Shown here one piece after another: positions 4,036-64,000 of a stretch of DNA of 64,000 bases. A program made the position numbers and the translations under genes. The DNA lies in contig CP142727.1 in the NCBI GenBank assembly GCA_036630325.1, positions 1,054,001 through 1,118,000 on the forward strand, in the 5' to 3' direction. The notes under the pieces are model-generated. The model searched no databases. It was not told where the DNA came from and worked only from the letters and a program-made list of their open reading frames with translations. Every line of letters begins with the position of its first letter. Position 1 is the first letter of the stretch. Source of the DNA: Vairimorpha necatrix. Its lineage: Eukaryota.

Positions 4036-4528
4036 ATATCAAGCTGTTACTATAGTGCTGTTATTTATTAAAAAATGAATTACTTTATAAATGTTGTAAA
4101 ATACTTAATGTTAAGTACAAATGAATTTTTTTTGTTTTTATCTTAGAAAACATAAACTTATCAAAAAATTACTCTGTCAAAATAAAGTTAAAATTGATTA
4201 ATTATTAATGAAATTATGACATTTACACTAGTTAAAGCCAGTTAAAATATATAATGTGTCGTTTATCAAATTCTAAGCTTATATCACAAAATATTTAAAA
4301 TTAAAAGCATAAAACATTAATTTAGCTCATAATTTAATTTGAATTTTTTTGTTTGCTTGGTGATTTTAATTTAGTAATATTTATATTAATTTAAATAAAC
4401 AATGAAAAATCCTAGTCAGAAGTAATTGAACAGTTTACACTTATAAATTTGTGAATTTAATTTTTAAATCATTTATATACAAAGAATTACCTGTTATAAA
4501 TATATAAAGTCTATTTATTACCCATAAA

Positions 4529-5257
4529 ATGTTATTGATTTCGTTATTATTTGTTTTAAATATTAAAAAATTAAAAGCTAACAATGAAAAGGATATGATC
4601 TTTTTAATAGAGGAAAGAAAAGAAAGATATAATGAATGCGTTAAAATGCTCTCTCATGATGAAGCGCCAAGTATGCGTGTAACTTATTCTAAAGAAAAAA
4701 GAGAAAAAATAGGAAAGATTATGTATGATGTCCTAATAGATGGTATTGATTTTCCTCTAAAAATGCAACCGAGTTGGCCAAAAACATCTAAAGAATATGA
4801 AATTGACCATGAAGACGTAACATTGGGTATATTTCAACGTGCTTTAACTGGTACTTATAGTGTTCCAAGGCGTTATGGTAAAACAGAAGCACTTTATATA
4901 TTTGTGTATGAACTGGCAGATAAAACTAGACGATTATGGCAAATTTTAATATGTATGTATAATTTTGATGATCTTGATCTTGACCAAGTTAAACAAATTC
5001 TTAAGAAATATTTTGATTTAAAACTTAGTGAAGAAAACAATTTAAAAGTAAAACAGGTATGTAAAAACAACGTTTTTAAACAAATTCTTGATGATGTCTT
5101 CCATAGTATTGGAAATCAAGCAGATAGTAATACCATTGAACATGACAAACGTGAAGATTTAGGTGGTAAAATGCAAGAAAATTCGAATTCAATGATATTA
5201 GCCGAGACCCAGGCTATGGATAGTTCTAATATGAATTTTAGTAAAAAGAATAAATAG
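4529..5257 (+). CDS. Hypothetical secreted protein, family A (242 aa)
   Basis: CCC motif before ATG and hydrophobic N-terminus. Shares FP.K.QP.WP...YEI and GK...Y....LA..T..L...C motifs with the genes at 51721-55505 and 58792-59532. Confidence 0.8.
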   Translation: MLLISLLFVLNIKKLKANNEKDMIFLIEERKERYNECVKMLSHDEAPSMRVTYSKEKREKIGKIMYDVLIDGIDFPLKMQPSWPKTSKEYEIDHEDVTLGIFQRALTGTYSVPRRYGKTEALYIFVYELADKTRRLWQILICMYNFDDLDLDQVKQILKKYFDLKLSEENNLKVKQVCKNNVFKQILDDVFHSIGNQADSNTIEHDKREDLGGKMQENSNSMILAETQAMDSSNMNFSKKNK

Positions 5258-7764
5258 TTAATATTTATTTAATATAAAAAATATATGTATATTAGTTTTT
5301 CTTTTTTTGTTGGATATTTTTCAAATTCAAAAGTTATCAAAAAAATTTATAAATATTTTTAAAAGCTTGCTATAATCTCATCATAAATAAATAAAATATT
5401 GTAAAGCTAGAAAAGACCCAATTTTTTTTAAATTTGCGATACTAGTCTTTAGATATTTTTAATCATATTTCGGATTTATAATTGTTAAATTCAAATACTG
5501 ATATTACAATGATATATCTCAAAATCTAAACGCTTAAACCCGCATAAGATTTAGAAAGGTTTAGATTTTTTAACTTTTTTAAATATTTTTAATGTTTATA
5601 ACTACATTTGTAATATTAAACTAACGAAATACATAAACCTGCGCCTGAATAACGGAAAGTACTAAAATATGCATTATTAACGTTTTTCTCATATAAATAA
5701 TGCTTTTAATATTAATTTTTTCATTTTTTTTTCGAGGTATCTTATTTGTATTTTAATTTTAACAAGATTCTGTGGATTAAAAGAAACATCATAAATATGT
5801 CGTTGAGTAATATTAGAATTAATTATTACAATGACAAAAAATATTTAATCATGTTTAGATATGTTTCTTTTTTTCTAGTTCTCTTGATATCAATATATAA
5901 CATTGAATAATATAGAGAAAACATATATATTTCAATTAGTTGTTTTTTCGTTTACGTTGTTACAAAGCTCTACGTTAAAATGAAACCACCGTGATATTAT
6001 ATTTTTTTTATACTTATACTACAAGATTTTTTACTCATACTTTATAACTTAACTTGACGGCGCAGCAAGCTCCACCGTACCTTTAATATTTTGATTCCAG
6101 AAAATTGAACATCTTTCATTATATATTGCCGCAAGAAATATCTCAGAAGATAAAATAATTAAGCATGTTTTAATTGATCTGAAAAAACATCTTCGTACTA
6201 AAACAATAGGCGTATGATTGTCTGCGTCTCGCAAATACTTTCCTACCCCGCTACTTGATCCAAAATTCATTTATAATTTGCGCTGCCTACTCGTCTACTA
6301 CAAGTACTGCATAGAATATACATAATTATGTAGAATAAGAAACGAGAGACTATTGATTGCTCTATTCTGTCCAATACATTTAGTAAACTAAAAAAATTCC
6401 TAAAATGCAACATCTTCGTTTTTTTAGCCCGTATAATACTTTACATAGTTTTGTAGTAGAAAATCTAACCGATTTCTGGTTTTAGTCTGTGTTTAATTTC
6501 TAGGCGGAAATTTCGTTTATGTGGGGTCTTACAAGTTTCATGAACCAACTTAGCGGCTACTGTGACATTTTTTTAATTCAAAAAAAAACTAACTTTTAGA
6601 AAAAAAAAAAATAATATACCAGTAGAATCAAATCCTCTTCCTAAATAATCAACTAAGATTCGCAGAATAAAACCAGAAAGGCGCTATGTGTATATAATCA
6701 AAAAATATGAATTTAAAATCGTAATATTGATAAGTGAGTCTCGAGAAAATACCTAAAAACCATGGATACCACATGCTAACAAATAACAGACATATTTAAA
6801 TTGACACAATCGCATAAAATTATATGAGTGGACATTTTAAATCGCACTAGTTTTTACAATCATTAAATTATAATTAATACCAAATATCTCAAAATGCAGT
6901 AATGTTTGTTTTTTGTCATATTGTTGTTTCCTCGATACATTATGACAATATAAATTATTCAATTTACTTTATCTTTAACTTCTGTCATAAAATTAGTAAC
7001 AAGATAATTTTTTCGGTATGAATTAAAACTAAATATACTAATCATTTTTTTATAATAAGTGCGTAATAAATATAGAATTTTAATTTGAAAAAATTACATA
7101 ACACCTCGGTTTTTTTTAATATTACATGTAAATTTCATATGTTTTTTATAAAACCTACGTGCTAGATTTATTTAAAATTGTGTAAGAAGGATAATCAGTA
7201 ATTTAATTACTCTATGTAAAATTATAACACGCCTTTTTATGTCAGTATTTTCTGGGGTTAATATAATAAAAACATTAAACTGTGAGTCATTGTCATAAAA
7301 AAAAACATACATTTGTTAAATGCTTTTGATTATGAATTCATATTTGATTGTAATAGTTAAGTCAAAAAAATATTGAATTTTATGAACTAATTACAAATAA
7401 ATTAAAAATAAGATGTATTTAAAGGGCAAAAAAATTAATAAACCTTTACTATAGTATTGTTATTCTCTTTATATAATAAAAAGATATATCATAAAAAAAT
7501 GGTTTAAAATGCTAAACGTATGTACGCGTGTATATTTATAATGTTTTATTATAGCAAGAATATTCTATAAATTGATTTATCATATTTATAATTGTTAATA
7601 TAGCATAACATTTGCATTACCTGAATGTTTATATATAGTATAAATATTTAATTAATATACTTAAAATATAGCTTTTTTTATAATAACATGCAAGAACAAT
7701 AGGTTAAGCGATAATTAATTCAGGAATATTTGTTTATTTTAATTTTAATTCGTAGTGATTGATT

Positions 7765-8836
7765 GGTACATGGCAGTTTAGAACCCGTTTTGAAAATTTA
7801 AAGGACCCCTCTTTCAAAAAATGGTCTGATTGACAAAAACAAATTTGGTTTAAGGATATGTGATCTTTGATGATGAAATGTTTTAAAACATGGAAATAAA
7901 TGAAAATTTATTTTGGAAACATTTTATGATGCTGTGACAGCGTGTATCTTTCTGGCACGCAGTTCATTAATAAAAAACAACTTTTTTGTACTGTATGCAG
8001 CTCTGAAAGGCCAATGAAATTGATTAGAAGAATAAGACTATTAGACAAATATGTTTGGAATTGCGCAAAACCTTGTACGCTTCTAAATCTGTCAGAAAGG
8101 ACTCTATTTTTGAAAATACCAAATTAAGTTTTTAAAAAATTATAAGAATGATATATAAGTATATAAAAAGAGTTTCCTTCTTCGATATAGCAAATGATCT
8201 CGATTTAGACTGAAAACCCGTAAGTACATATGGTTTGCTCTGCAGAGATCGCATAATCGAGGAAGTGACCAATAATAGTCAGAGGTTAGGAGGCCGTGAT
8301 GAGTTCGGCATTTCTAAAGTAGTGGAGATCGACGAGAGTCTATTCTTCCGTGCCAAATATAATCGTGGTAATCATACCACAGGTCAGTGGTATGTAGGAG
8401 GAGTTTAAAGAGGTTCTAAAAAGGCCTTTCTCGTCCCCGTAGCTAGTAGAGATACTGCTACCCTTCTTGAGGTAATACAAGATAATATATTGCCTGGTTC
8501 TATTGTGATCACTGATCAATGGAGAACATGGGTGCTGCATTTAGACAAATCACAAGGATGGAGCACAGGACTGTGAATCGCACTCTCAATTTCGTAAACT
8601 TTAACGATCCTAGAACATAATACCATACAAATTGAAGATTTTGGTCTAGACATGGAATAAACCAGGACGAGCACTAAGAGTATCTTTTACAGTTTCTATG
8701 GTCTTATCAAATACAAAAAAACCAAAGGATTAATCGACTTCGTTCATTAATTAAAAACAAACGTTAAGTCTCTTCTTTATGATTTTTTTTTTCCTTTTTT
8801 GAAATTTTCAAAGCGGGTTCCAAACGGCCATGTGCC
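7765..8836 (+). mobile_element. Merlin DNA transposon with pseudogenised DDE transposase
   Basis: TIRs GGTACATGGCAGTTTAGAACCCGTTTTGAAAA / TTTTCAAAGCGGGTTCCAAACGGCCATGTGCC. Transposase motifs CTVC...WNC, VVEIDESLFFRAKYNRG, GQWYVGG, ITDQWR, interrupted by stops and frameshifts. No clear TSD. Confidence 0.9.
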
Positions 8837-36255: not shown

Positions 36256-37101
36256 TTATTTAATATGTTCGTATATCTGAATTATTTCTTCATGAATTTT
36301 TCTAGCTTCGTAAGAACTTGATATTAATGAAAATAAAATCATTTTTAGTGCTTTAATATATGCACTAACTGCCCTTTTCATCGTTTTATTTTCGTATCTA
36401 TATAACCCAAATCTATTTCTAAGTATTTCAAAGGTGTCAATCATTGGTATATAGTCAAATGCAGAATATATATTTATATCAAATCTATGTAGTTTTATAC
36501 TTTGCTCACATAAATATTTGAATCCTGTTATATCATTTTTCATATCATAAATGGTCAAAAAAAGTTCGATAAGTTTCATAAAATCAATGAGAATATTATG
36601 TATATCGATTGGAGTATTGTATTTCTTCATTAATTTTTTTATTTCCATCAATTGTTTTTTAGTCTTTATACACAAATTATCAAAATTTAATGTCTTTAGT
36701 TTTTCATAAATATTTTTATCTTCTCCAAATTCTATATCTTTTCTAATCTTTTCGCGGTTTACTTGTTCCTGGGTCGATTTACTTTCCATCCTCATTTTAA
36801 ATTGATTAATTTTATTTTCGCAATTAATTAAAAGACTTTTCATAATATATAAATGATTATAAAAAAATTGTATATTGGTTTCTACTGTTATAATTTCTTG
36901 TGTATCATCTGATTCCATACCTGTCAATAAATTTTTATTTTCATTCATATTTTTCTGAAGTTCATCATATGGTCTAAATTTATCATCTTGGCAATTAATT
37001 ATGGATATGTAGCTATCCGCATCATTCTCACCTAAAATATCTTTTTTGTATTCACTTAAAGTCAATTGACCACAATAAATAAAAGCTATAATATACATCA
37101 T
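36256..37101 (-). CDS. Hypothetical secreted protein, family B copy 1 (281 aa)
   Basis: Short hydrophobic N-terminus; FRPYDELQKN, NTPI and IYSAFDYIPMIDTFE shared with the 40880 and 44357 genes. Confidence 0.85.
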   Translation of the reverse strand: MMYIIAFIYCGQLTLSEYKKDILGENDADSYISIINCQDDKFRPYDELQKNMNENKNLLTGMESDDTQEIITVETNIQFFYNHLYIMKSLLINCENKINQFKMRMESKSTQEQVNREKIRKDIEFGEDKNIYEKLKTLNFDNLCIKTKKQLMEIKKLMKKYNTPIDIHNILIDFMKLIELFLTIYDMKNDITGFKYLCEQSIKLHRFDINIYSAFDYIPMIDTFEILRNRFGLYRYENKTMKRAVSAYIKALKMILFSLISSSYEARKIHEEIIQIYEHIK

Positions 37102-40879: not shown

Positions 40880-41725
40880 TTACTTTTTGTATATCTGGAT
40901 TATTTTATTATAGACTTTTCTTCCTTCAGTTATTTTAAATATAATATTATATAAAATTTCTTGGAGTTCCTTTACTTTTAGCTCTGTCTTCTTTTTTATA
41001 ATTTCATTTTCGTATCTATATAATCCTAATCCAGTTTTCATTTTTTCAAAGGTGTCAATCATTGGTATATAATCAAATGCAGAATATATTTTTATATTAA
41101 ATCTATGTATCTCTACACTTTGAGTACATAAATATTCGCATCCCGTTAAATCTTTTTTCATTTCATAAATTTTTAAAAAATGTTTGATAAGCTTCATAAC
41201 CCCAATTAGTATATTATCGATTTCGATTGGCGTATTGTAGTCCTTCAGTGATTTTTTTATTATCTTTAATTGAAATTTAGCATTTAGGCATAAATCATCA
41301 AATTTTAAATCTTCTAGTTTTTTATAATAATTTTTAATGCGTGCTTCCTTTTCTATTCGTTTTTCAATTCTTATTTGTGATCTTTTTTTTAATACAATTT
41401 CTTTTCCCATTAATATTTTAAATTCATTAATTTTATTTTGACATTTAGTTAGATAGAATTTGATTATAATGATTGGGTCATATAAAATTTGTCTACTACT
41501 TTCTAAGGTATTTTTTTCTAATGAAAAATCTGATTTCATATATTTACAATCAACCTGATTTTTTTCTAAATTTTTTTGAAGCTCATCATATGGTCGAAAG
41601 TATTCTGCATCATTTTGAGGTATTATAGATACATAATCATATGGTTTGTTCTCTAGTATGTATTCTTCTATGTAATCGCTTCTATTACATCGAGCAAAAT
41701 TTATAAAATTATAAAGCAGAATCAT
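40880..41725 (-). CDS. Hypothetical secreted protein, family B copy 2 (281 aa)
   Basis: Same motifs as 36256-37101; CCC before ATG. Confidence 0.85.
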   Translation of the reverse strand: MILLYNFINFARCNRSDYIEEYILENKPYDYVSIIPQNDAEYFRPYDELQKNLEKNQVDCKYMKSDFSLEKNTLESSRQILYDPIIIIKFYLTKCQNKINEFKILMGKEIVLKKRSQIRIEKRIEKEARIKNYYKKLEDLKFDDLCLNAKFQLKIIKKSLKDYNTPIEIDNILIGVMKLIKHFLKIYEMKKDLTGCEYLCTQSVEIHRFNIKIYSAFDYIPMIDTFEKMKTGLGLYRYENEIIKKKTELKVKELQEILYNIIFKITEGRKVYNKIIQIYKK

Positions 41726-44356: not shown

Positions 44357-45199
44357 TTAGTTGTATATCCGATTTAATTTTTCATAAATCTTTACCGCCT
44401 TATTTGTACTTGATAATAAGTTAAATATAATCTTTTTTATTGCTCTCATAATTTTATCTATTTTCATTGGTTTATAAATATTTTCGTATTTATATAAATC
44501 CATTTGTTCTTTCAAATTCTCCAAAGTTTCTATCAAAGGTATGTAATTGAATAATGAATATATTTCTATATTATACAAATTAATTTTTTTTCTTTGTGAA
44601 TATGAATATTTGCGACCCATTGTGTTTATTTCCATATCATAAATAGTAAGAAAAAGTTGAGTGATCTTTATGAACTCAATTATGATAATATTAATTTCGA
44701 TTGGAGTATTTAATTTCTTTATTAGTTTTGTTATCTCATTCAGTTGATAGTTAGTTTTGATACATAGATAATCGATTTTTAATTCTTCAAGTTCATGATA
44801 AATAATTTTTGCGGGCTCCATAACTTCTAATTTTTTTGTAATTAACATACGTGTTATCATTTTTGCGACTGATTTGCTTTTCATCCTTTTGATATATTTC
44901 TTTATTATATTTTTACATTTAATAATATGAAATTCCATTTTGAAAATTGATTTCTGCAATATGTGCCTGTTCCATTTGCAGGTCGAAAATTCTTCCGATA
45001 AGTCTGTTTTCATAAAGGTAGAAGAAGTTTTTTCTGTTCTTATGTTTTTTTGCAATTCATCATACGGCCTAAATACAAAAATTTCTTGAGAGGGTATTAT
45101 GGATATGTAATAATTTGTTTCATTCTCATTAATGTAATCTTTGATGTATTCACTTAAAGTTAACTCAGTACAATGAATATAATTCAAAATAAATATCAT
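44357..45199 (-). CDS. Hypothetical secreted protein, family B copy 3
   Basis: FRPYDELQKN, NTPIEI, IYSLFNYIPLIETLE. Start set at the ATG after CCC. Confidence 0.85.
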   Translation of the reverse strand: MIFILNYIHCTELTLSEYIKDYINENETNYYISIIPSQEIFVFRPYDELQKNIRTEKTSSTFMKTDLSEEFSTCKWNRHILQKSIFKMEFHIIKCKNIIKKYIKRMKSKSVAKMITRMLITKKLEVMEPAKIIYHELEELKIDYLCIKTNYQLNEITKLIKKLNTPIEINIIIIEFIKITQLFLTIYDMEINTMGRKYSYSQRKKINLYNIEIYSLFNYIPLIETLENLKEQMDLYKYENIYKPMKIDKIMRAIKKIIFNLLSSTNKAVKIYEKLNRIYN

Positions 45200-45785
45200 T
45201 TTATGGGTGAAAAGACACATGCCTATTTATATGAATTTTAAAAGTGGTTTTGTTATTAAATTATATGGAGGGTATTCATAGTGTAAAAAAGATTATTCAT
45301 GTATGGTCAATTACTTGACATGAAAAAAACATCAATGCAATGTATAAATGGTATACAACATAAGACTAATAAACTATTACATCTAAGACAAGATGCTTAT
45401 AAATGTTATTCAAGCTTTGTTTGCAAGTCAAGGGAAAAATATAGAGAAACTAAAATTAATCTGGGACTTATATTATTTTTTTGAGAATTAAAACACATGA
45501 GAGTACCCAATATATAGGTAAGCGTATTTAATCGCGTGGGAATTATTTTCTTAAATTTTCGATTTTAGCCAAAATGTTTGTACGAATTTTCTGGGAGTAT
45601 TTGAATGGAAAAACAGGTAAAAGATTATAGAGTAAACCGATGGATACAAAATAAATGAATTAAAATTTACTCTTTTTATGAATAAACAAAGAATATAACT
45701 TAGACAATCATCAAAATTATCAACTACAGAAATTACCATCAACTGTATGTTTTAGAGCCATATTGCTTTCGTATTATATATTTTA

Positions 45786-48700
45786 TGTATTTTTTTTTAA
45801 AAGAAGGTAGAAATTATACAAATATATAACATCCCTCTCTAAGACGGTTAGTCTCCCTTTATCCTCAACCCAAGCAGACCTTTCAGATCATAGTGTCTTT
45901 TCTTTATGTTTCTTTCATTTACGAGCTTTACAATGTATGAACCTTTACCACATCTCTCTATAATTTGACTATTTTCCAAAAACCCGCCTTTTGAATATTT
46001 CGTACCTTTAAAGTCTCCTTCTTGGCTACTTCAATGTACTCACCTACTTTAAAAACTTCTCGCTTTCCCTTATTTGCCATTTATACATATTTTCCTTGCG
46101 AGTTGTTTTCAATCATTACGTTCTCTTTTTCATTTTCTGTTACTTCTTTTGGTGTACATTTTATTGCGGCATGATAACTCATATTATATTTTTCAATACT
46201 ACTCATAACTTTTTCTTAATGGTACCTTCTTTCGTCTTAAAAATGCCTTTTTGCATCGTTATTTTGAAATTTTGCAAGCAACATTACTTTTGTTTGACGA
46301 AAAACTTACTTTTTTATGTTTAATTTCTAGTCTGTTGAAAAAAGCTTATACCCCCTCATTGAAAAAATCTCGTTCGTTATCAGTTATAATCTCTTCAGGC
46401 TTTTCCCCTTGCTCATATAATCTACTAATAAATTCTATAACATTATTTCCAGCTTTTTTCCCCATTACCGTTCTTCATACTCTTCGGTAAAATAATCTAT
46501 AGCTATTAATACGTGTTTACCTATGTCTCTAAAATCAATAAGATCCAAAGCAACCTTTTTAAGATAGAGTGTGTCTACAAATTCATATCCTCTGACTTAC
46601 TCTTTTATATATTTGCACTGTTCACACCTTCGTATTGCTTCATTTATGTCTTTCTTTATTCAGGGCCAATAAAAATTTTCTCGCATCACGTAATATACAC
46701 TAGTCATGCATCTATATCCAATCCGCTCGTGGTACTCTTGCATCCACCTCTCCCTTATATCTTCTGGAAGGATCTCTGCCTTTCGCCCCGAATCGAATGT
46801 CCTGTATCTCTTTTCTCCTATCATCTCAACGTGAGGGTTCCATTTACCCTTTATCGGCTTAATGGATCTTTCATTTTATCGTCTTCTATATGTATTCTAC
46901 TTAACGCGTCGGCCACTACCAGTTTTTCTGGATTCTTATATCCTATGGGAAAATCAAATTCCTGAATCTTATCGATCCATCTATTTATTCTATTATTGTA
47001 AAATATAGCTTATTACTAATTTCTACTACTGCTTTATGGTCTGTCTCAATGTCAAAGTTCCTGCCACGCAATTCTTATTTAAATCGTTAAATTTCCCAAA
47101 ATGTCGCGTACATTTACCTTTTCTGATATATTTTATCTAGTCTCCGTAGTGTTATGTTTTTTGAGCTTCATTGTATTGCTACCATTCTCCTTTCTCGTTC
47201 TTCTGAAGCAACACTGCTTCAATCCCTACTTTGCTCGCGTCCGTTCTGTTAATAGATACTTTACAATAATGTGGTAATCTAAATTTCCTCATCGTTCTCA
47301 ATACTTATTTTAGCTCTAAAAACTCCATTTCATTTCAATTGTCCATTTGCATTTTCTATCTTTACCTCTCAAGCTATCTGTCAGATGAATAGTTATTCCT
47401 GCATAATTCTTATTAAAATTCCCAAACCACCATGTTATTCCTAATTCTTTGCGTTTCACTTACACTTGTCGCTATGGGAATTCCAGTGCTTCGTTCCTCT
47501 TTATCTTTTTTGCTTCAAAATCTGTACCATTCAATGTAACGCTTAGAGCTTAACTAACTGAAACTAAATTGTATCTTCTCAATATTTAACCTCATTTATG
47601 TCTCTTTAACCTATCCAATACCTCTATTACCAACATGTCATGTCTTCTTTGGTTTTAGCGTATATGACTTTGTCGTTCATATATACTCCAACGCCATCTC
47701 CTTCCAAATCATCAAGGAATTTGAACATTTTTCGTTGTATTCTGCCGGGAATTTATATATCCTATCACCATGCTGTTCCATTCATATAACTTTCTTAAAA
47801 TTCAAAGGCCGTTTTGTGTTTGTCTGCTTCTTCAATTCCACGTGATAAAATCCCATTTTAAATCTATTACTATGAATCATTTGATTCGTGTGGCTTTATC
47901 AATGTCCCCGACATTTGACAACTCATACGGATCTTTCTCAACCACGCCATTTAAACACATTAGATTACATATAATCTCGCTTCTCCGTTAGGTTTACCTA
48001 TAGCCCCAATTGTGTTCCTCCAGTCAGGTGCCGACCTTCTTGTAATCTTTTTATCTTATAAACTTTTGATATATTTTCAGTATCCTTCATCAATTCCAAT
48101 GAAATTCTCTGCACTCCTTTTACTGCTCTTTTTCCTTAAGGGGCTTAATTTTCCATTTTTATATCTTGTAATATCTAATCTCTTCCTGTTGCGAAGAAAA
48201 CTTCCTTAAATTTTGCTTTTATGCCTTTAATGCTAAGACCCTTTCTTTTCTATCTTTCCTCTTTTCTTTTCGTTCTACTTCTTGCTTGCGCTTTACCACT
48301 TTTTCTATATTCTTGCGTACTGAGCTCTGTGCTTGTAGATCCACCCTCTTTTTGAACGCTTGTACGAATTAAAACGGTTATTTTTATTATTTTCCTCTTT
48401 CATCTTCCTTACGGAGCAATCTTATGCCATGTGCCCGAATCTACCGCAGTAAAAGCGACATTCACTCCTCTGCTTACATACTCTTTACTTACCCTTAAGC
48501 TTGCTTTTTTATTCGCTAATTCCTCTTTGAATGTTCCTCTAACCGACTCAGCAATCATTTCAATTATTCTACATTCATCTTCTTTTTCTATAACTTTTTC
48601 TTCCTTTTAAGATTCTTTTTCCATTTCTTCAACAATTAAAGTCCGATTGTCTTCTTTCCTAATCCTTTCAACCATAAAATTTTTTATTTCTTCTGAACCC

Positions 48701-48889
48701 ATTTCAAAAATTTTTGCTTTTAATATAGGCATGTCAACACCATCTAGCTCTAATTTATACACCAGCCCTTAACTTCTTGTAACATTTTTTCTGACCTCTT
48801 GACCACAGCCCTCACATGTCGACTCTCGATTTGGAATCGCCCCCACTATTTATCATAATGAGGAGGCGAAATTATACAAATATATAACT
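45786..48889 (-). mobile_element. Decayed ~3.1-kb Ty3/gypsy retrotransposon with ~45-bp LTR remnants
   Basis: Shared LTR core GAAATTATACAAATATATAAC at 45810-45830 and 48868-48888. PBS TGGGGGCGATTCC starts at 48845 on -. PPT AGAGAGGGA lies next to 45831. Broken CCHC, RT (EWNSMV, VYM.D), RNase H (ETDHK, RWIDKIQEFDF) and integrase remnants. Confidence 0.88.
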
Positions 48890-49871
48890 TCTATTAAAGA
48901 TCTCATATTTACTTCAAGAAGCAATTGATTAAATGTCGCTCAAATGAGCTAGTTCTTTTGAGCCTTGTTGTTTTATAGCTATATGTTAGACAATAGCATT
49001 ACATGTAACCGTGTAAAAGGATTGTTGTTTCAGCTCAAGCAGAATAGCGTACATTTACAATTAATCGTATTTAATTAATTTTTTCCATCAATATTCAGAA
49101 AAAGTAATTGGTCGAGAAAGATATAAATAATTTAAATGCATTCTGCGTTGCATAGTCTTAATTAGTGTTCAGTTTATTATTCTAAACAGAATAAAAATCA
49201 TGCAGTCATTATTTATACACAATTATATTTTAAGAAAATAAATGATATACAAGGCAAGAATCAACTGAAAATTTACTTATTGTATGAATGAAACTAAGAA
49301 TTTTGCCTTAAGAGAACATTTAGATTTAACTTTTATAAGTTTACACAACAAATTTTATATTTTCATAACATTTCTGATTGTTCATGTCATCAAGTTTATA
49401 TTTAATTCTTTTTCAAATCCCGAAATAATACTTGGTATATATTAAAATTTTTTTTTGTTAAGGTTTATCTACTTTTAGAATATACAACTCAAAATTAAAT
49501 TGTCCGGGCACCTATACTATATTTGATTTCTCTTCTATCAATGTTTTTTTTGTATTTTATCAAGGCGTCTAGACTATTTGCCCCACAATATGCTCTTTGC
49601 TTTTCCTAAAATTATTATGAGAAATAGGATCTCGATTTTCGTCAAAGGTATAGTCCTTCCCAAAATTTAATATGGAATTTAGTCATTATCCAACGTCTTT
49701 GCTACGAAACCATACAACGTTATGACTTATACATAGAGGCTTTTTTTTGTCAATGTTTAATGTTCTAAAATTTTTAGGTCTCGGCTATCCAGTAAAAAAC
49801 TTAAATATAAATTTCTAAGTATTCAAGTTTAATAAGTATTTTTAGCTTAAAAATAAAAAAATAAAATACCT

Positions 49872-50171: not shown

Positions 50172-52123
50172 ATTGGGATACGTCTGGTTCTATTATTTAT
50201 AATTCAAATATTAATTAAAGTTCTGCATCAACACTACACATTCTTTATGAATTAATGATATGATTAAAATGCATTTGACTATCTAGGTTACAAAAAAAAC
50301 ATGAAACTACACTCGTTGATCTGTAGTTCTTAACTCTTTATTTAATATGTATAACGAAAAACATTTTTTACTTTCTATTTTTACAAAAAAAAATTTAATT
50401 CACTTTCAAGACTATAATATTTCTCTTTACGAATTCTGGGTAAAATAGGTTTACTATATTTAGAAGATAAATGAGAAAAAGGTTTAATTTATTTTTTCCA
50501 TATAATTAGAATATAATACAATTAAAGCAATATTCTAAATATAAAGACAATCACATGGAGAAATTCAATATATGAATATTAGTTAGTTCCACTTTTTTAT
50601 TTTAATTTATCAAAAAATAAATTTATACGACGTTTTATTGACTCATTGATTTTATTAATGTGGACGGCGGATAGTCCAGATATCATGATTGGTAATTCTA
50701 ATCGGTAAAACGTCTCAGTCTGAAACAACGTTTCAGAAATAAATATAAATACCTTTTTGGAATAACAATCATGGGTAAAAATAAATACAATTCAACTAAA
50801 TCTCATATTTCGTCTAACGTCAACATATTAAATTAACAAATAAATCATTTAAATGACATTTAGAAACAAACAGAGTTGCACGAAAAAACAGAAAAAATAA
50901 TTTAAAGTATACACCAATAACAACCCCTTTCTTCATTGGTAGATTATAAAACCAATTACATTTGAATTTAAAAGTAACACGACAAAAAAATTTATTATAT
51001 GGAATAAATGTTATACTACCAATATTCTCGTAGTAATACTTGCCTCGATTGGAATTGCACACTATAGTAGCTAGAGTATTCAATTCCTATTACAATCACC
51101 CCCTAGAAAAAGCAACCCTTGTTGTTTTTTAAACATGATAATCTCAAACGGTTTTGCAACTTCTTCCTTTTGCCGTAAGTTGCAATGAGAATTATTATAC
51201 TAATTTTCAATTTTGCCACATCTCGCACTATATGAGTCATATAATCAGTACTGCTGACTAAATTTAAAATATGATTCGTTTTCTAATATAACAATATCTA
51301 TTTCATTCTTTTAATCAAGTATGGTATTATTCTCTTAACAAAGATGTACTGCGATTTTAATTCTTTCTCAATATATGATTCTCAAAAGGAATTAAAAAAT
51401 GACTTTTTAGCTAACGGAATGGCACTGAAGTAAATGTAGATGTTGAACTTAAATTGCACATAAAAGAATCTATATGACAAAATTTCTAACTGAGATAGCT
51501 TTCGAGGTAGAAAATACACTAAGATATACTAGAACAATCAAATGATTGTTTTCCGTATATGTAACTACTTTCGCTAAATCATAAAAAAACATCATAGCTT
51601 AAGCGTATAACTAAAAAATGAAAATGTCTAATTTGATCAATAAACAAAATTAAAATACATAAAGATTAAATAAAAATATAATAGCCAAAATAAATATAAT
51701 ATGTTATATGAAAAATGACATCACTCTAAAAATAAGCCTAATCTTTTATATGAATTATCTTCTACCACTTTAATGTTAATAATGTGTTGTCTGGTTTTGG
51801 GTTCTTCATAAATATATTTCAGGCTCCTTAAAATCATTTTATAATCATCATTATCAAATACTTGTGTGACTTTACATGTTTCCTGATCGTCGATTTTGAT
51901 AGTCATTATATAAGATAACACAGTTTTTAATTTATGTTGGTTTAGTTCTTTTACATTAAAATTAAAACATAAAAGAGAATTATAAATTTTTTTGGTTTGA
52001 TTCGCTAAAGATTTCAATAATTCATAAATTACTTTTTCTTTTCCGTGATATGTAATCTTGAGACCAGTCATATTTAGTGAGTGCCAATATATCTCGAATC
52101 TCAAATCTTTTTTAGTTATTTCA

Positions 52124-52161
52124 TGTTAACCATTTATTTATTAAGGGTTCTAAACCCTACA
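52124..52161 (-). repeat. 3' LTR (38 bp)
   Basis: Minus strand TGTAGGGTTTAGAACCCTTAATAAATAAATGGTTAACA; contains the ORF stop codon. Confidence 0.95.
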
Positions 52162-55100
52162 TCCCCCCTCCAGACGGGTAGTCTCTCCATCTTCTAAACA
52201 ACTCTTCCTTATCTCTTTCAAATCATAATGCCTCTTTTTAACAATTTTACCATCCAGTAGTCTCACAATATATGAATCATTTTCACTTATAGCTACGATC
52301 CTTCCGCGACCCGTGAATCTTCCCTTGTCTGTTTTCGCACGTGTACCTAAATTTTCTCTTCTAGCGATTCTTACCTCTTGGCCTACTGTAAATGTCTCTC
52401 TGTGTCTTCTCTTGAACCGACCAGCATATTTTCCATTTTCATCATTTTCAATTATAACTTCAGCAGTTTGATCTCTCCACGCTTCCATCGGCGTACATTT
52501 TATTGCTGTATGTAGTGTATTATTATATCCTTTGATTGCTCTTTCTATCTTTTCAGAAATATTCCCATCATTTTGCTTTATCAATGTCTCTCTTATAGTT
52601 CTGATGCATCTCTCGATTCTACCATTACTCCTATGAGCTTCTAAGCCCACTTTCCTATGTTTAATATCATTAATACTACACCATTCTTTAAATCTATTAC
52701 TTACAAACTCTTTTCCGTTATCTGTCACATATTCCTCTGGAAATCCATCTTCCCTTATCCACTTTTGTAATACCTCTATAACTTCACTACTCTCTTTACA
52801 TCTCAAATTCGAACCCCACAACCTTCTAGTAAAGTAATCAATACCCAGTAACACATACCTATTCTCTCCACCTATGTCCATTAAATCCAACGCCACTTTC
52901 TCCAATTTCTTTCTAGTTACTACGAAATCACATCCTCCTGTGTTTTTCCTATTGTTAATCCCACATATTTCACAATTCTTAATTACCTTATTAATATGAT
53001 CTTTTATACCAGGCCAATACCATCTTTGTTTAATGTTATAATAAGTGCCTTTGACACCTCTATGGTTTAACTCCTCATGTACTCTTGTTATTTCATGTTC
53101 TCTACTATCTAGGCTCAATATCTCTTTCACCTCACCTGTGGAAAATTCCCAATACTGTTTACCGTCCTTTTCTTTAATATGTTTCTGCTTTTTTCCCAAA
53201 ATTTGTTTTTCGATCACTTCTTTTCTCTTGTTGTCCTTTTCTTTTTGTTCATCCGACACTTCTACCTGATCATACTGCCTACTTAACGCATCTGCATCTG
53301 TCATCAACTCCCCTTTCACATACTCTATTGTAAAGTCAAACTCTTGTATCTGTTCTACCCATCTGTTTATTCTGTTATTATTGAAGTATGGCTTATTTCT
53401 GATCTCTGCTAATGCTTTATGATCCGTCATCAAATGAAATTTCCTTCCTCTCAAATCACTTTCAAACTTCTTTATTCCAAAAAACACCGCCAACATCTCC
53501 TTCTCACTTATCGTATATCTTCGCTCGGTAGGAGTCAACATTTTCGATGCCCATTGTATCGGAATCCACTCACCCTCTTTATTTTCTTGTAATAGAATTG
53601 CTCCGATCCCCGTATCACACGCATCAGTTCTTACTCTAAATAGCTTTTTCCCGTCCGGAATCTTCAATTTTTTCATATCTCTCAAGCCTTGCTTCATATC
53701 CTCAAAAGCTCTTTCCATATCCTCCGTCCAATTCCACTTAACATCTTTCTTTAAAGCCTCAGTAAGCCTTACTGTTCTATACGCATAGTTGGGAATAAAG
53801 TCTCTAAACCAACCAGTTAGTCCTAAAAATCTTCTTAACTCTCTAACATTCTCAGGTTTTCTATATTCCAATGTCTCCTGCTTTTTAATCTCATTCGGTC
53901 CCATGACCTCCCCATTAATTGTTACTCCCAGCAACATCACCTCATCTTTTTTGTATTGTATCTTTGTTTGGTTTATTCTCAACCCACACTCTTTAAACTT
54001 TTTAATTACCCTCTCTAGTAACTCGTCATGCACTCTTACGTCTTTACCATGAATAACTATATCATCCATATATACTTCCACGCCTTTACCTCTGAATTCA
54101 TCTAAAACTCTGTTCATTACTCTCTGCATTATATGAGGCGAATTCTTAAACCCCATAACCATACTATTCCATTCGTATACTCGACCATTCACTTCAAATG
54201 CTGTTTTGTGCTTATGGTGCTCCTCAATCTCAATATGATAAAACCCTTCTTTTAAGTCGATAACCGTAAATACTTTTGACCCCTGTGTGGCTCTCATAAT
54301 ATCCTTAATTAACGGTAGTGAGTACGGGTCCTTGTCAACCAAATCGTTTAACGCCATCAAATTGCTTACCAATCTTACGTCCCCATTTGGTTTTTCAAGT
54401 GCTCTTATTGGACTCCTCCACTCACTTTTGGAACGTCTTATAACCCCTCTATTTTCCAACTTATTCAAGTACTCCTCAAATTTCACCCTAAGGTAGTATG
54501 GCACATTCTGCCCTCTTTTCACAACCTTTTCACCTTGCTTAGTATTTATTGGACACTTCTCTCCTGTGAGATATTTTATCTTTTCTTCTGATTCTTTAAA
54601 AACTTCCGGATACTTTTCAATTAAATTTTCTAACTTATTTACTGTTTTACATCTTTTCCCTTCATTGTTGATAATTGGTTCTTTCTGTAAAACTTGTTCC
54701 TTTTTAATTTTATATTTTTCCCTACCAGCTACACTTTCATGACATTCTCTAGCGTAATGCCTTTCTTTCTTACATATAAAACATTTTGTAGTTTCTCTGA
54801 TTTCTCTTCTTTTCCTATACATCCTAAGATTTTCTTTTCTTTCTTCCCTAAACTCTTTCAACACTTTATCCATAATCTCTTTAATCATTTCTTGTCTTTC
54901 TTCTGACTCTCTCTCAAATTCTGCTCCTTTTTGTAAGCCTTTATAAATTTCCTCCCAACTGCTCCTTCCGTCACAAAAATTTTCAAAAATATAATCCTGC
55001 AAGTTCGCAGATGCCAAATCCATAACATCTTTCCACTCAACTTTCTCAACTTTCAATATTAACTTTAGTCTCTTATCTATCCTAATTGCCTCTTTCTCTA

Positions 55101-55170
55101 ATGTTCTAGCCTCTTGACTACGGGACTCTCTTGTTTCCCTGTTCATCCTTGTGTTCGCCATGTTAACCAT
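52150..55170 (-). CDS. Gag(CCHC)-RT-RNaseH-integrase polyprotein (1006 aa), no recognisable protease
   Basis: CFICKKERHYAREC; DLKEGFYH, MGFKNSP, YMDD; TDACDTG, EKEML, TDH; HEELNH...CEIC, LDLMD, TDNGKEF, NGRIER. Confidence 0.95.
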   Translation of the reverse strand: MVNMANTRMNRETRESRSQEARTLEKEAIRIDKRLKLILKVEKVEWKDVMDLASANLQDYIFENFCDGRSSWEEIYKGLQKGAEFERESEERQEMIKEIMDKVLKEFREERKENLRMYRKRREIRETTKCFICKKERHYARECHESVAGREKYKIKKEQVLQKEPIINNEGKRCKTVNKLENLIEKYPEVFKESEEKIKYLTGEKCPINTKQGEKVVKRGQNVPYYLRVKFEEYLNKLENRGVIRRSKSEWRSPIRALEKPNGDVRLVSNLMALNDLVDKDPYSLPLIKDIMRATQGSKVFTVIDLKEGFYHIEIEEHHKHKTAFEVNGRVYEWNSMVMGFKNSPHIMQRVMNRVLDEFRGKGVEVYMDDIVIHGKDVRVHDELLERVIKKFKECGLRINQTKIQYKKDEVMLLGVTINGEVMGPNEIKKQETLEYRKPENVRELRRFLGLTGWFRDFIPNYAYRTVRLTEALKKDVKWNWTEDMERAFEDMKQGLRDMKKLKIPDGKKLFRVRTDACDTGIGAILLQENKEGEWIPIQWASKMLTPTERRYTISEKEMLAVFFGIKKFESDLRGRKFHLMTDHKALAEIRNKPYFNNNRINRWVEQIQEFDFTIEYVKGELMTDADALSRQYDQVEVSDEQKEKDNKRKEVIEKQILGKKQKHIKEKDGKQYWEFSTGEVKEILSLDSREHEITRVHEELNHRGVKGTYYNIKQRWYWPGIKDHINKVIKNCEICGINNRKNTGGCDFVVTRKKLEKVALDLMDIGGENRYVLLGIDYFTRRLWGSNLRCKESSEVIEVLQKWIREDGFPEEYVTDNGKEFVSNRFKEWCSINDIKHRKVGLEAHRSNGRIERCIRTIRETLIKQNDGNISEKIERAIKGYNNTLHTAIKCTPMEAWRDQTAEVIIENDENGKYAGRFKRRHRETFTVGQEVRIARRENLGTRAKTDKGRFTGRGRIVAISENDSYIVRLLDGKIVKKRHYDLKEIRKSCLEDGETTRLEGGCRV

Positions 55171-55198
55171 TTATTTATTAAGGGTTCTAAACCCTACA
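55161..55198 (-). repeat. 5' LTR (38 bp)
   Basis: Identical to 52124-52161; contains CCC, AATAAA and the ORF's first ATG. Confidence 0.95.
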
Positions 55199-57689
55199 TT
55201 TCATATCTATTATTTTTATTAACACCGGGCCAGTTCGGTTGACTTTTAATAGGAAATATCATATTACTCAAAATACTATCATAAAGTAATTTTGCCATTA
55301 GTTCTGCAATAAGGAAATCATAAGTTTTATATGTTATTGTAGTACTATCTTGAAAAAGTACTCTACGACAATGTTTACGATCTTCATACAAAATATCGGC
55401 CTGATCACTTCCTTCTATTGTCCAATTAGTTAAAATTTCAGTTACGGTATTGTTTATAACTCGTTTTAGATTTAAGAAAACTAAAGCTGTATTTAGAAAC
55501 ATCATAACCCTCCATATTAATTTTTAAATGTACAAATAAATCTATTACACTAGAATGATAAATTTTTTTTTAAGATTCACAACAAATTAGCTTATGATGT
55601 TTTGTTTAAACACTTTGTTTGTTAATGTTGTATATCTGACTTACTTAATATTCTTGTTGACTCAAATAAACAAAACTTAAATATTATAATTATGTAATTC
55701 GCAATTCTTCGTATGTATAGAGAGTTAAGAAGTCCTTCATATTATGAAAAAATAGATTAAAAACATTAAAATGTCAATTGAGTTAGAAAAGTGTTGAATA
55801 TGAATATTTTAGATTAATTTTTATAAGTTCAGAAACCCCAAATGTTGAAATGATGGCTCATGCTTATTCAGACCTAATTCAATACCAACTATGTATAATT
55901 TCTAATATGTATATAAATATTATCAAGTTTTTTTAATCAGTTTGCGCAATACACTACATAAATAAATTTTTTTGTAAGAGGTATATATTGTAATAAATTT
56001 GTAATGATATGTAGAATATTAAGTCCAAATTATAAATTTCCAATATTTTTTGAATGTATGACTTTTTCGTTAACTTTTAAAATAATAATTAGAGAAATTC
56101 TAGAAAATTATATCATTCAAAAAGCTTGTCGATTTTGTGATTATATAATTTCATCAAGACTTTTAGACATAAATAGTAAGTTCAAGTCAATTTTAATCCG
56201 GAAACCTAGTCAATACCGTACATTTGTATTTTATAAAATAAAAGTTTACTTTTCTTCTATATAGCACGACTAGATGACTACAAGATTTTAGATTTTAATA
56301 AGGCAAGTACATAAAGGAAAGCAAGTCTACAAGTTAATATAGCTTACGCTAAGATTAGAATAAAACCACGATAATTTTTCATAGAAAACATAAAAGATAA
56401 AATCTATGACCAACATGCACACACATTAAAAACTCTGATCTTTACACAATTAGAGAAGATCAAGAGAAATATTCATTTCTTAAGGACATATATAAAAGTG
56501 TTAAACAATTTATAAATATTAAGAGACATGGATTTTTCTTTATTGCAAGACTTCATTCATTTCCAGCATTCTTTACGAAGTTAAAAAACCACTGCTTTTA
56601 TACCTTGTTTTCAAGTTGGCGTGGTAAATAAAAACTTCCTATTAAGAATCTGTTGTTAATGCCTGTCTTTTCACGATGAAAAAAAATAGATTATAAACAT
56701 TTTGATATAGGGAAATACGGAATCTAAAAATAAAATAAAACTTTAGTACATATAATTGATGAAATAATAAGATTTAAACAATTTAAACCATATATATATG
56801 AGTACTTAAATTTGGATCGGAGCTATTGAAAAAGATACATTTATTTTTATCTTCTTAGAATAGCCGAACATAAATAGGCTTAAACATTTGGGTTTGCCGA
56901 TTTTATTGTTTAGAAAACAGTATTCTATGTAGAAAAAAGTGGTGACAATTTGGTTATCAAATAAAAGTTTTAAAATAAAAATTGTCTAAAACACCCTTTT
57001 ACTAGTTCATATTGTTAATACATTTACCTTTACAAAGCAAAAAGTTTGACACAAACTTCTAAATTTTTTTTTCAATGTAAATATCTAGTGCGCAACATAA
57101 TAAATTAACAGACAATAAATAAGACGACAATATTTTTAAATTTTTAAATCTAAGGATATACCTTGTAATACATATTCGACTAAAATTTATAGATTACTAT
57201 AACAATTTGTCTTCTTTGTAAATTATTCTATGATAGGAACATTATTTATATCTCAATTCATTTTCTTGGAGACACCAAAACATTATCTTAATTCTATTGA
57301 AATTTACTTATATTTAAACAAATAATTTAAATAAAAATGAAGACCGTCATAATTTCTATTTTCTTACTTTTTTATAAAGTCTGTTTATTTCGGTAATGTA
57401 CCGGTAAAAAAAAATTATTAACACGTTGTTGCAGTGGGTCGTTTTTGAAATTTCTGGTTCGAGTCAGCGTCACTCGCTTTCAAAATTGTTCAGAAATAAT
57501 GAAATAACACAAATTTATTTTTCGAAATAAATATAGACATCAAACACAACTAACATAAATAAATACTTTAAATTAATATTTAATTTTTTTTGCTTAATAA
57601 AGTCTTAAAATCCAACAATTATTTTATTCAGATTATAAAAATGACAATATAGATACATAATAGTACATAAAGTATATGATAATTAAGAC

Positions 57690-58791: not shown

Positions 58792-59532
58792 CTAATTTAA
58801 ACAATACACATTGTTTTGTCTGCTTAATTGAGAATTTTGAACATCTAAGATATCAATTTGTAAATTATCAAAGGACATATTAGAAACACAATTATGTATT
58901 ATGGCGATATTATTGTCGGTAACATATCTGATTTCTTTCTTTATGTTTTGAAAATTTCTTCTTGAAAAAACTCTTGTTACTTTATAACTAATAAAACTCT
59001 CCAATTTAATATCAATTTTATTCGACAAAACTAGTTTTATATGAAAAAGATTGAGTTTTTGTTTTCTAAAATTAAGACACACTATATCATTATATAATGC
59101 ACGAGTTTCGTCAGCAAGCGATAATAATATTTCGTAAATTACTGCTTTTTTTCCTATATTAAAAAAAAAGAAAAGAGGATCTTTCAATGACCTATATAAA
59201 TTTCAAACTTCAGGTCTCGTTTTAAGATTTCATATTTCTTTTTATTTCGTTCTTTAGGCCAGTCAGATTTCATTTTTATTGGAAAGTTCAAATTTTCTAA
59301 AAGTAAATCAAAAAAAAACTTTAGCTATTGCTTCTGCTTGCGAATTATTATAATTATCAAATATTTGATTATGGTTTGTAAAAAATAATTGTTCATGGCA
59401 ATTATCATTCTCTATTTTTATTTTAGTAATTTTTTCATTTTTAACTTCCGCGTCATAATTTTTTCCCTTGGTTGTGGGATGAGTTTTGACTTTCTGGAAA
59501 TCCAGAACTAATAAAAAATGTTTCAAAATCAT
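58792..59532 (-). pseudogene. Family A secreted-protein gene with frameshifts
   Basis: CCCC-ATG start and signal-like N-terminus. Across frameshifts it reads NFPIK..SDWPKERNKKKYEILKRDLKFEIY then GKKAVIYEILLSLADETRALY. Confidence 0.75.
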
Positions 59533-61566: not shown

Positions 61567-64000
61567 TGTTATATATCCTTATTATTTTTACCCCTTATGA
61601 TGGAAAATAAACACATGGGGGCGATACCAGAAAATGGGTCTACAAAGGAGGACCGTGGCCAAGAGGCTAGAATATTATTAAAAGAGGTTAAAAGGATTGT
61701 TTATGAGTTGTTTTTAGAGAAAATTGATGAGTGTGGATTTAAATTAGAAATTTTTAGGAGAGGTTCTATTTTATTGAGAAATTTTATTGTTGAGAGGATC
61801 TCGCAAGAGGGTAGTTGGAAGGAAATTGAGGAAAAATTAGAGTTGCTAGCTATTCAGGAGGAAAAGGAACAAGTGAGAAAAAAAGAATTTGAAGAGTTGT
61901 CCCTAGCGTTATGGGCTAAATTTGAGGAGAAGAATAAGTTGTCTCGTAAGGAAAATAAAAAGAATATGCGTTGCTACAGTTGTGGGAAGTTAGGCCATAT
62001 GTTAGATTTTGTAGGGGAATGAGGCGAGATTCCGAAGACAGAAGAAATAAAAGTAGTTTTAATTATGTTGGTAAATGTAAAGTGCAATTAGACTTAGAGG
62101 GTAAATGTGATGACGATTCCAATTCGGACAAATGTGATTATTATAATGTTGATGGTGGGAAACGTAAGAAGAAAAATTTAGGGGATATACAAGATTATAG
62201 CAAAAGGGACAATAATAAGAGAGTTCTGTTGAGAAGGGATGTAAGAGGCATCGCGTATTTAGAGGAGATTATTTCACGGGTAGGAGGAAGAGAGGATGAA
62301 GATATTAGTTTTTGTAAGGTTGAAAAATGTATTATCAAGACTCAAGAAGGCAAAAAAGTTGTTAAAAAGGGGCAGGCTATAGCCCAGGCTTTGTTGAAGA
62401 AGACGGAAGATTATATTAATAGTTTGGAAAGAAGAAAGATAATTAGAAGGTCGACATCTGACTGGAGAAATTCCATTAGAGCGATTGAGAAACCGAATGG
62501 TGATATAAGATTAGTAAGTAATTTAATTGCTCTTAATGACATTGTAGAGAATGACCCTTATGAGTTAACTAGGAAAAGAGATGTTATTAGAAGTACACAG
62601 GGATCTGAATTTTTTACCGTGATAGATCTAAGGAGGGGTTTTATAGTATTGAGATTGAAGAGAAGGATAGGTTTAAGGCGGCTTTTGAGTTTAAAAAAAA
62701 TGTATCCGAGTGGAATTCGATGGTCATGGGGTTTAAAAACTCACCGCAGATATTACAAAGAATAATGAATGGGATTTTTGAAAAATTTATTGGTAAGGGA
62801 ATCGAAATTTATATGGACGATATTGTGATTCATAGTAAGACAAGAGAGGGTCACGACAAATTGTTGAAAGAGGCTGTGGATATATTAGAGGAGAATAGTA
62901 TGAAAATTAATTTAGCTAAGGTTCAATTATGTAAACGAGAGGTGATGTTGTTAGGAGTAACAGTTAATGGCAAGGAGATACTGCCATCTGAAATAAAGCA
63001 AAATGAAGCGTTAGAATTTCCCAAACCGGAGTGTGTATCAGATGTTAGGAAGTTTCTTGGGCTGGCTGGATGGTTTAGAAATCATATTGATAATTATGCA
63101 AAACGTACATTGGCGTTGACGGATTCTTTTAAAGGACGAGGAAGTAATTGGAAATGGACAGAAGAAATGGAAAAAGAATATATTAGTTTAAGGGAAGTGA
63201 TTAGGGATTTAAAAGGTTTAGCAATTGTTAATTATAATAAGGAATTTTTGTTACGCACGGATGCGAGTAATGTTGGATTGGTTGCTGTTTTAATGCAGGA
63301 AGATGATCAAGGTAATTGGGTACCAGTACAGTGGGCATCAGAAAAGTTTACGCCTACGGAAACGAGATATGGAATCAGTGAGAAGGAGATGTATGCAGTC
63401 TTTTGGGGAATTAAAAAGTTTGAATATGAACTACGCGGAAGAAGATTTAGGGTAGAAACTGATCATAAGGCATTGATCGAGATTAGAAATAAACCAGTAT
63501 TTAACAATAATAGAATTAACAGGTGGATTGAAAAGATTCAAGAGTTCGACTTTAGCATTGAATATAGAGAGCCTAGTACCATGGTTGTAGCAGATGCACT
63601 GAGTAGGGTACATGAAAATGAGAAAACGCTAATGAATAAGGAGAGAAGTATTAAACAGGCACAGGGTAAATGGGACAAGCATGTTAAAGTTGTTGATGGG
63701 AAGGAAATTTGGGTATTTGACTCTGGTAGAGAAGCGGAGATTCCAAAGAAAGAATTGCGTGAAGGTTTAATTGTCAATGCTCATGAAAATTTGGGACATA
63801 GAAGTTTAGGATCAGTGTACTATGCAATGAAGTTTGAATTTTATTGGCCGGGTATGAAGAAGGATATCGAGGATGTTTTAAAGAAGTGTGAAGTTTGCCA
63901 AATATATAATAGGAAAAAGAGTGGTGGTTGTGATTTTGTTAGTTCAAGATTTTATTTGGAAAAGGTTGCTTTGGATTTGATTGAGGTTAGAGATTTAGGG
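61567..64000 (+). mobile_element. Third minimal Ty3/gypsy copy (frameshifted, truncated by the window end)
   Basis: Putative 49-bp 5' LTR TGTTATATA...AATAAACACA (61567-61615) with CCCC-ATG inside, then PBS TGGGGGCGATACC. CYSCGKLGH, YMDD, TDAS, TDHK, HENLGH...CEVC. Frameshifts near 62000 and 62630-62700. The 3' LTR is outside the window. Confidence 0.9.

Follow-up and report, generated by a model that had tools for sequence, protein, structure and literature searches.

Known Ty3/gypsy elements and short LTRs

The LTRs of Ty3 comprise several hundred bases. For microsporidia, Xu et al. are said to have described, in 2006, the Nbr elements of Nosema bombycis as Ty3/gypsy members with intact ORFs. 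Ty3 (PMC5371799) and Drosophila gypsy (PMC1635307) are primed by a tRNA, carry a polypurine tract (PPT) and one zinc knuckle and encode reverse transcriptase (RT), RNase H and integrase in this order, all of which is found in the element described here as well. Both also dock the tRNA at a further place close to the 3' end, where its T-arm pairs and the two RNA ends can be bridged: in the priming passages of PMC5371799 the primer site of Ty3 is split and its U3 part pairs with the T-arm, and for gypsy the tRNA was found to bridge both RNA ends in vitro, only the 5' one of its tRNA sites being indispensable (PMC1635307). Our element has a candidate counterpart, which, unlike that of Ty3 and gypsy, overlaps the CCC of the promoter. 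In contrast to Ty3, which has a protease and a processed Gag, it lacks a protease.

Among microsporidian elements, retro_L of Anncaliia algerae is listed with 3,127 nt, a 50-nt LTR and an ORF at 32-3049 (Parisot et al., 2014; PMC4202319, Table S1, File S1). Judged by eye, it falls within the same clade as our element, sharing CCC and ATG inside the LTR, the LTR/primer-binding site (PBS) junction and the motif before the PPT, with 19 nt from CCC to the LTR end; across species, LTRs could thus be compared through this single published consensus and through protein ends. However, the LTR of retro_L measures 50 instead of 38 nt, its ORF stops 28 nt before the 3' LTR, and its LTR start is AT-rich and without the T-arm-like segment seen here. 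In the same tables, the Anncaliia LTRs below 100 nt measure 45, 50, 73 and 90 nt, and among 50 complete elements the ORF begins within the 5' LTR in 43, stops within the 3' LTR in 30 and has both ends inside LTRs in 26 (PMC4202319). Judging from these annotated sequences, overlap of ORF and LTR is the microsporidian norm and not peculiar to micro-LTRs, and a near-micro LTR is already on record.

The main-text passages of Parisot et al. (2014; PMC4202319) that we consulted hold no discussion of LTR length, overlap, primers or protease, and those of PMC7313128, PMC11592040 and PMC10759460 make no mention of micro-LTRs or protease loss; parts of PMC3601003, PMC4589312 and PMC12471100 were included in the comparison as well. 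In the literature searched, which mostly excluded subscription journals so that Nbr may have an earlier short-LTR description, we found no discussion of either trait in microsporidia. Short LTRs with small-RNA-like sequence are, according to passages of PMC3281118 and PMC10886601, also a feature of TRIMs/SMARTs, Helenus and Cassandra. All of these are, however, non-coding and non-autonomous, whereas the present element encodes RT and integrase, and its tRNA-like segment is antisense and measures 15-19 nt.

Structure and copies of the element

The window, i.e. the whole 64,000-nt stretch of Vairimorpha necatrix DNA that was analysed, contains a Ty3/gypsy LTR retrotransposon of 3,075 nt at 52124..55198, delimited by paired LTRs and genome matches. 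It lies, with all its parts named below, on the minus strand. Repeat comparison gave a 5' LTR (55161..55198) of only 38 nt that begins with TG and ends with CA, and an identical 3' LTR (52124..52161). A 5-bp target site duplication (TSD), TGAAA, abuts the TG end upstream (55199..55203) and the CA end downstream (52119..52123). All 13 nt of the PBS (55148..55160) pair with the 3'-terminal nucleotides of tRNA-Arg(TCG) from this genome and 12 nt with those of tRNA-Arg(ACG), and ten purines at 52162..52171 form the PPT. Thus the direct repeats ending in TG...CA, the TSD, the tRNA PBS, the PPT and the domain order are those of Ty3/gypsy elements. The preliminary description had proposed that the ORF runs from LTR to LTR, which is borne out: a single ORF of 1,006 aa (52150..55170) extends from an ATG at nt 29 of the 5' LTR (55168..55170) to a TAG at nt 10-12 of the 3' LTR (52150..52152).

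Searching 15.0 Mb of the genome (12 contigs) returned 49 protein matches and 82 LTR matches with up to 3 mismatches. The reversed LTR, used as a control, gave none. Among the 82 distinct LTR contexts, the PBS follows in 40 and the PPT precedes in 42; solo LTRs are absent from this set. The family comprises about 40 near-identical copies. We compared 38 full copies, having set aside any with nested insertions, with an LTR that is split or with a 5' LTR that has degenerated. A perfect TSD of 5 bp flanks 33 of the 38, LTR pairs are identical in 31, and pairwise divergence has a median of 0.46%. Fifteen of the 38 retain an ORF of 1,000 aa or more, and this together with the 1,006-aa ORF rules out a TRIM or another non-autonomous miniature element. 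Singleton substitutions among copies are synonymous in 65 and other in 165 cases, shared ones in 8 and 9, the copies being too young to read selection. Nor did LTR variants help to map U3 against R, since the two copies with the nt-19 variant have no internal substitution in common. One copy (L071, G000:C9:444286-445295) has its last 972 nt duplicated in tandem and hence two 3' LTRs, with the TSD after the second.

An empty allele exists as well: one contig of run X1 joins 52117 directly to 55198, so that 3,080 nt are missing, the length of the element together with a single TSD. The contigs of X1 are of unrecorded kind and maybe derive from the window's own sample, so they speak to the existence of this allele only. 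That the short repeat arose through misassembly or by chance, or is what remains of a longer LTR, has a negligible probability. This reading is refuted by the empty allele and by TSDs that directly abut TG and CA, and the 82 matches against none in the control and the same design in Anncaliia contradict it further. The element is genuine and was recently mobile.

Insertion is sequence-selective in the clade. All 33 focal copies scored have an A before and a T after the TSD (A-N5-T), as do all five sibling copies that could be read at both ends, and a T follows the TSD in 13 of 13 sibling 3' ends scored (three rows remained unparsed). In other families the pattern occurs in 4 of 30 copies with a duplication, and the background is 13%. 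In the flanks of all clade copies, A-N5-T often makes a TATA-like sequence just before the 5' LTR, which might provide the AT-rich promoter part that is absent from the 38-nt LTR.

The focal copy sits in sense orientation inside a host ORF of about 235 codons, whose parts (55199-55505 and 51721-52118, minus strand) share one frame. A degenerate stretch similar to this ORF lies at 58792-59202. The interrupted ORF did not match three tandem paralogues of about 281-287 aa at 36-45 kb (36256-37101, 40880-41725 and 44357-45220, minus strand); one of these was scanned and had no Pfam match above the cut-off. Elsewhere in the window, nested inverted repeats resembling MITE or DNA-transposon ends were seen at 1027-1634, 3189-4004 and 1475-7931.

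A protease-less protein with a short Gag

Pfam places RVT_1 at residues 259-418 of the ORF, RT_RNaseH at 508-611, Integrase_H2C2 at 690-741 and rve at 766-839. These domains are preceded by a helical Gag remnant of about 125 aa and a CCHC at residue 130, and the YMDD of the RT lies at 367. A protease motif is found in none of the four clade rows, compared with 20 of 20 non-clade families examined. A profile built from the proteases of these families recovers three held-out ones (E 1e-14 to 7e-10) but, among 93 sequences, gives the clade proteins a best E of 0.65, and the interval from CCHC to RT comprises only about 58-87 aa in the clade. In the FastTree phylogeny, the 40 rows without a protease form a group with support 97 that falls inside the protease-bearing relatives. 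Homologues are named from Nosema, Vairimorpha and Enteropsectra, which marks the window as microsporidian; viral and prokaryotic contigs yielded no related DNA and metagenomes one irrelevant locus at 27%. By its sequence, the focal element is a derived Ty3/gypsy variant nested among protease-bearing relatives and not a canonical member.

Clade members have 121-164 aa of Gag before the zinc knuckle, and the Gag of non-clade families is longer. The structure model of this Gag comprises three short helices and one of 56 residues (mean pLDDT 77). A Foldseek search with it gave no match, and its comparison with the Arc C-lobe (Z 5.4, rmsd 3.1, 63 aligned) stays within noise. Atlas features connect the Gag at 0.89 to the Retrotrans_gag/Ty3_capsid clusters, which we take as a lead, and a Gag profile against the sister Gags returned a probability of 3%.

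The protein is probably used uncleaved or cut in trans. One might ask if the clade is only partly autonomous, with protease and full capsid supplied in trans by protease-bearing LTR families of the same genome. Helpers are indeed present, as all 20 non-clade families examined have both the protease motif and a longer Gag. However, about 40 divergent homologues keep one ORF of some 1,000 aa, with RT and integrase intact and an equally short Gag, and the clade follows its own target rule, so that the integrase, at least, works on cDNA of the clade itself. We regard such dependence as possible yet rather doubtful.

Signals within the LTR

At the level of letters, the preliminary description of the 38-nt LTR was accurate, as the 6-bp stem, CCC, AATAAA, ATG and, in the 3' copy, TAG are all in place. 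The stem occupies nt 4-9 and 13-18 around a 3-nt loop, CCC nt 15-17 and two overlapping AATAAA nt 20-25 and 24-29. The first ATG follows at nt 29-31, and a second one at nt 38-40 (55159..55161), in frame, is formed by the terminal A of the LTR and the TG of the PBS. The CCC (55182..55184) corresponds to the microsporidian promoter-type motif (PMC2803860) and precedes the ATG by 11 and the LTR end by 21 nt. In the 3' LTR, the two AATAAA (52133..52142) end 13 and 9 nt before the LTR end.

The earlier view of CCC as a host-type start motif agrees with the host genes: CCC occurs within 30 nt of the ATG in 19 of 38 host-like ORFs, at least two of which are doubtful, compared with 4.3% of 7,054 AT-rich control windows. 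The gaps between host CCC and ATG range from 0 to 15 nt and measure 11 nt in four ORFs, as in the focal LTR. In a post hoc test with 20,000 base shuffles, a fraction of 1e-4 contained AATAAA together with a CCC ahead of an in-frame ATG. Both CCC and the in-frame ATG inside the LTR recur in related families and in Anncaliia retro_L. From the C run to the LTR end, four clade families have 21, 19, 21 and 20 nt and the sister family L201 has 21 nt; nine other tabulated families range from 16 to 50 nt. Thus two of the three signals whose conservation had been proposed as a check, CCC and in-LTR ATG, are maintained. The position of the third, AATAAA, is not: in most short-LTR families it lies 1-24 nt from the LTR end. 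The hexamer as such agrees with host usage, since in host ORFs AATAAA was found between -10 and +40 of the stop in 22 of 38 cases.

The junction ATG had also been reported at 61614-61617. That locus is a CATG of the plus strand and belongs to a second clade member, which is frameshifted and has a 49-nt 5' LTR (61567..61615, plus strand) and a tRNA-Pro PBS at 61616-61628. A third clade member, heavily decayed and likewise with a tRNA-Pro site, is located at about 45786-48890 on the minus strand. A junction Met is present in 27 of 31 near-complete homologue N-termini, 21 of which have another Met 3-6 codons upstream, and the junction ATG is in frame in all 11 zero-spacer LTR types viewed, a twelfth type (L207) being outside this count. 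Since CA abuts TGG, only the reading frame is informative here.

Translation of PBS and PPT, as originally described, holds for the focal family. As cis signals, however, neither the translated PPT nor the stop codon in the 3' LTR survived comparison: sibling families stop 25 and 18 nt before the 3' LTR, and read-through of the PPT was flagged by pattern in 5 of 27 homologue tails and seen by eye in about 8 of 27. On these alignments, both features are incidental, tolerated rather than required. Directly before the PPT lies a 14-nt motif (52172..52185), common to the clade and Anncaliia retro_L. Protease-less clade members conserve it irrespective of the tRNA that primes them; it has 180 genome matches and can form a stem of 4-6 bp. 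It was considered as a tRNA site and rejected, as it shows only a 6-nt match to the D-stem of tRNA-Pro and is also kept in Arg-primed families. Long-range pairing between the 5' and 3' RNA ends was equally unconvincing, as in the four families compared 25, 146, 15 and 64 of 200 shuffles paired at least as well.

LTR lengths across this genome range from 38 to 350 nt. In the focal LTR only 14 nt, with 62% AT, lie upstream of CCC. We consider it somewhat probable that the LTR has been reduced to the integrase ends plus one host-style gene start. Alternatively, the LTR is a weak or unused promoter, and host read-through RNAs spanning both LTRs serve as templates, the cDNA switching within the 38-nt repeat and PPT and tRNA defining the ends. 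The 14 nt upstream of CCC would fit this, as would the sense orientation of the focal copy within a host ORF and, according to passages of PMC2803860, the transcription of both strands and blurred termination in E. cuniculi. Yet different families and species retain CCC at its spacing and also the ATG inside the LTR, and translation from this ATG needs a nearby 5' end; we thus rate this alternative improbable. Under read-through, the T-arm site discussed below could act from the 5' copy, like the primer activation signal of retroviruses.

A candidate second site for the primer tRNA

As a functional fold, the hairpin proposed in the preliminary description had to be rejected. With a folding z-score of -0.24 it does not exceed chance, a 6-bp hairpin occurs in 13% of 20,000 base shuffles, and in three sibling LTRs both the hairpin and any significant fold are absent. 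The same segment, LTR nt 4-22, is complementary to the T-arm plus variable loop of tRNA-Arg, and this pairing starts exactly where the 13-nt PBS pairing ends. In the 5' copy (55177..55195) it is probably located upstream of the transcription start; in the 3' copy (52140..52158) it would be a putative second, U3-borne tRNA-binding site in the RNA. The duplex comprises 18 pairs with one bulge and yields -22.7 kcal/mol with Arg(TCG) and -22.3 kcal/mol with Arg(ACG), ranks 1 and 2 among the 50 distinct tRNA genes found in the genome, in which not all isotypes were recovered. None of 1,000 dinucleotide shuffles reached this energy, and none of 1,500 reached the ungapped match of 13/15. In the wider 83-nt end region the primer tRNA ranks only 38 of 50.

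This test was post hoc, and the relatives to which it was applied share common ancestry. In L251, a diverged 38-nt relative, tRNA-Arg ranks first (0 of 300 shuffles) and the self-stem is interrupted. Further Arg-primed relatives with LTRs of 36-39 nt gave 0 (L256), 1 (L259), 5 (L252) and 8 (L255) of 300 shuffles, and weaker matches gave 22 (L254), 24 (L253) and 36 (L258). Altogether, the old 38-39-nt sister copies are mixed, seven having the primer at ranks 2-8 with 0-36 of 300 shuffles, whereas in L246 the match fails (rank 28). A further 26 rows, among which a single old subtelomeric insertion recurs in many duplicates, fall at ranks 3-21 with 0-54 of 200 shuffles. Such decayed sisters with LTRs of 38-39 nt occur near most contig ends with the same flanks (e.g. 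L252, L259, L264-L277) and were apparently spread by subtelomeric duplication. The Pro-, Ala- and Ser-primed families never passed (0 of 8). Two 49-nt LTRs of Arg-primed elements do not show the match either (72 of 300 shuffles each), so that by these comparisons it is not required clade-wide. Some 48-nt LTRs also have GAAC before CC.

What had been called a hairpin thus looks like a candidate second docking site for the priming tRNA. T-arms resemble one another from tRNA to tRNA, and whatever is complementary to a T-arm will be palindromic and contain CCC. GGG...CCC might instead be a DNA feature of the promoter, either CCC/GGG on both strands or an antisense B-box-like element, or the relic of a captured tRNA, without any tRNA pairing in RNA; the rest of the model would stand. 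Passages of PMC2803860 report that CCC- and GGG-like motifs both serve microsporidian promoters, tRNA-like sequence in LTRs is on record for Helenus TRIMs (in parts of PMC10886601), and the 48-49-nt siblings work without the match. However, the two best of the 50 tRNAs are precisely the two that match the PBS, and L251 retains the pairing despite its interrupted self-hairpin. A neutral relic, moreover, should not persist in families about 50% apart in protein. We therefore find a DNA feature or relic conceivable, though unlikely. A tRNA-Arg bridge between both RNA ends has about even odds in our analysis.

Several LTRs of other families are unusual in different ways. A young clade family has 49-nt LTRs that end with TA instead of CA and have clean 5-bp TSDs (L199:1378-1426), and the 87-nt LTR of the sister family L194 ends with AA. 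A family with 168-nt LTRs (L189, L190, L208) has TSDs of 6 bp, compared with 5 bp elsewhere. Longer LTRs of other families (L171-L196) contain long inverted repeats in their first half, folding at -15 to -86 kcal/mol, values without shuffle control.

Proposed replication model

For E. cuniculi, passages of PMC2803860 give 5' UTRs of 1-7 nt downstream of CCC and describe microsporidian termination as leaky, so that read-through templates exist. If this holds for our element, Pol II would start between CCC and ATG, at LTR nt 18-28 and most likely at nt 22-28. The 5' RNA copy would consequently lack nt 1-17 and an intact first AATAAA, and the tRNA-primed cDNA would reach the cap after 11-21 nt. 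Starting before the junction ATG would leave an implausible 2-8 nt, and the first ATG is thus probably the one used. Cleavage of the 3' RNA copy, following either AATAAA by 10-20 nt, would take place no earlier than nt 35 and hence at or just past the LTR end. U5 would then be nearly absent, and the whole minus strong-stop DNA, of about 11-21 nt and entirely homologous to the RNA 3' end, could anneal there. With 19-21 nt between CCC and the end of the LTR, the spacing is consistent with the originally suggested strand transfer over 10-20 nt, as extrapolated from another species. In Ty3 RT, the active sites for polymerase and RNase H are reported to be about 13 bp apart, and one might speculate that such a span is what keeps the constant spacing of about 20 nt from becoming any shorter.

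Less surely, and for the 38-nt families, tRNA-Arg would bridge the RNA ends in the manner of Ty3 and Drosophila gypsy: its last 13 nt would sit on the PBS and the T-arm next to them would pair with nt 4-22 of the 3' LTR, which would keep the acceptor beside the short cDNA. The TAG inside the 3' LTR would mark a tolerated read-through tail.

Taken together, we assign a probability of about 60% to the model of a young Ty3/gypsy element whose LTR consists of the integrase ends and a host-style start and whose strong-stop DNA is very short. A bolder version envisions a minimal self-sufficient element without U5 and with a strong-stop of at most 20 nt, roughly the 13-bp span of Ty3 RT and a few bases more, in which the primer tRNA itself arranges the transfer by way of a T-arm site that doubles as the CCC promoter and one uncleaved protein provides half a capsid, RT and a sequence-selective integrase. 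We consider this version tentative and rather improbable as a whole.

Implications

Elements of this kind disrupt host genes in microsporidian genomes. Their LTRs fall below the default minimum of LTRharvest, given as 100 bp in a passage of PMC2253517, and none of the 82 LTR contexts is solo, and so they are probably under-annotated in these genomes. The focal element gives a lower limit for the necessary content of an LTR; for comparison, an engineered Tto1 element is reported in a passage of PMC3061985 to work with 125 bp. The minimal terminal redundancy for first-strand transfer, a long-standing question, becomes testable on an object of 38 bases. If the T-arm site is genuine, one stretch of 19 bases would serve as promoter in the 5' copy and as tRNA dock in the 3' copy, and such docking could explain how repeats as tiny as these still work.
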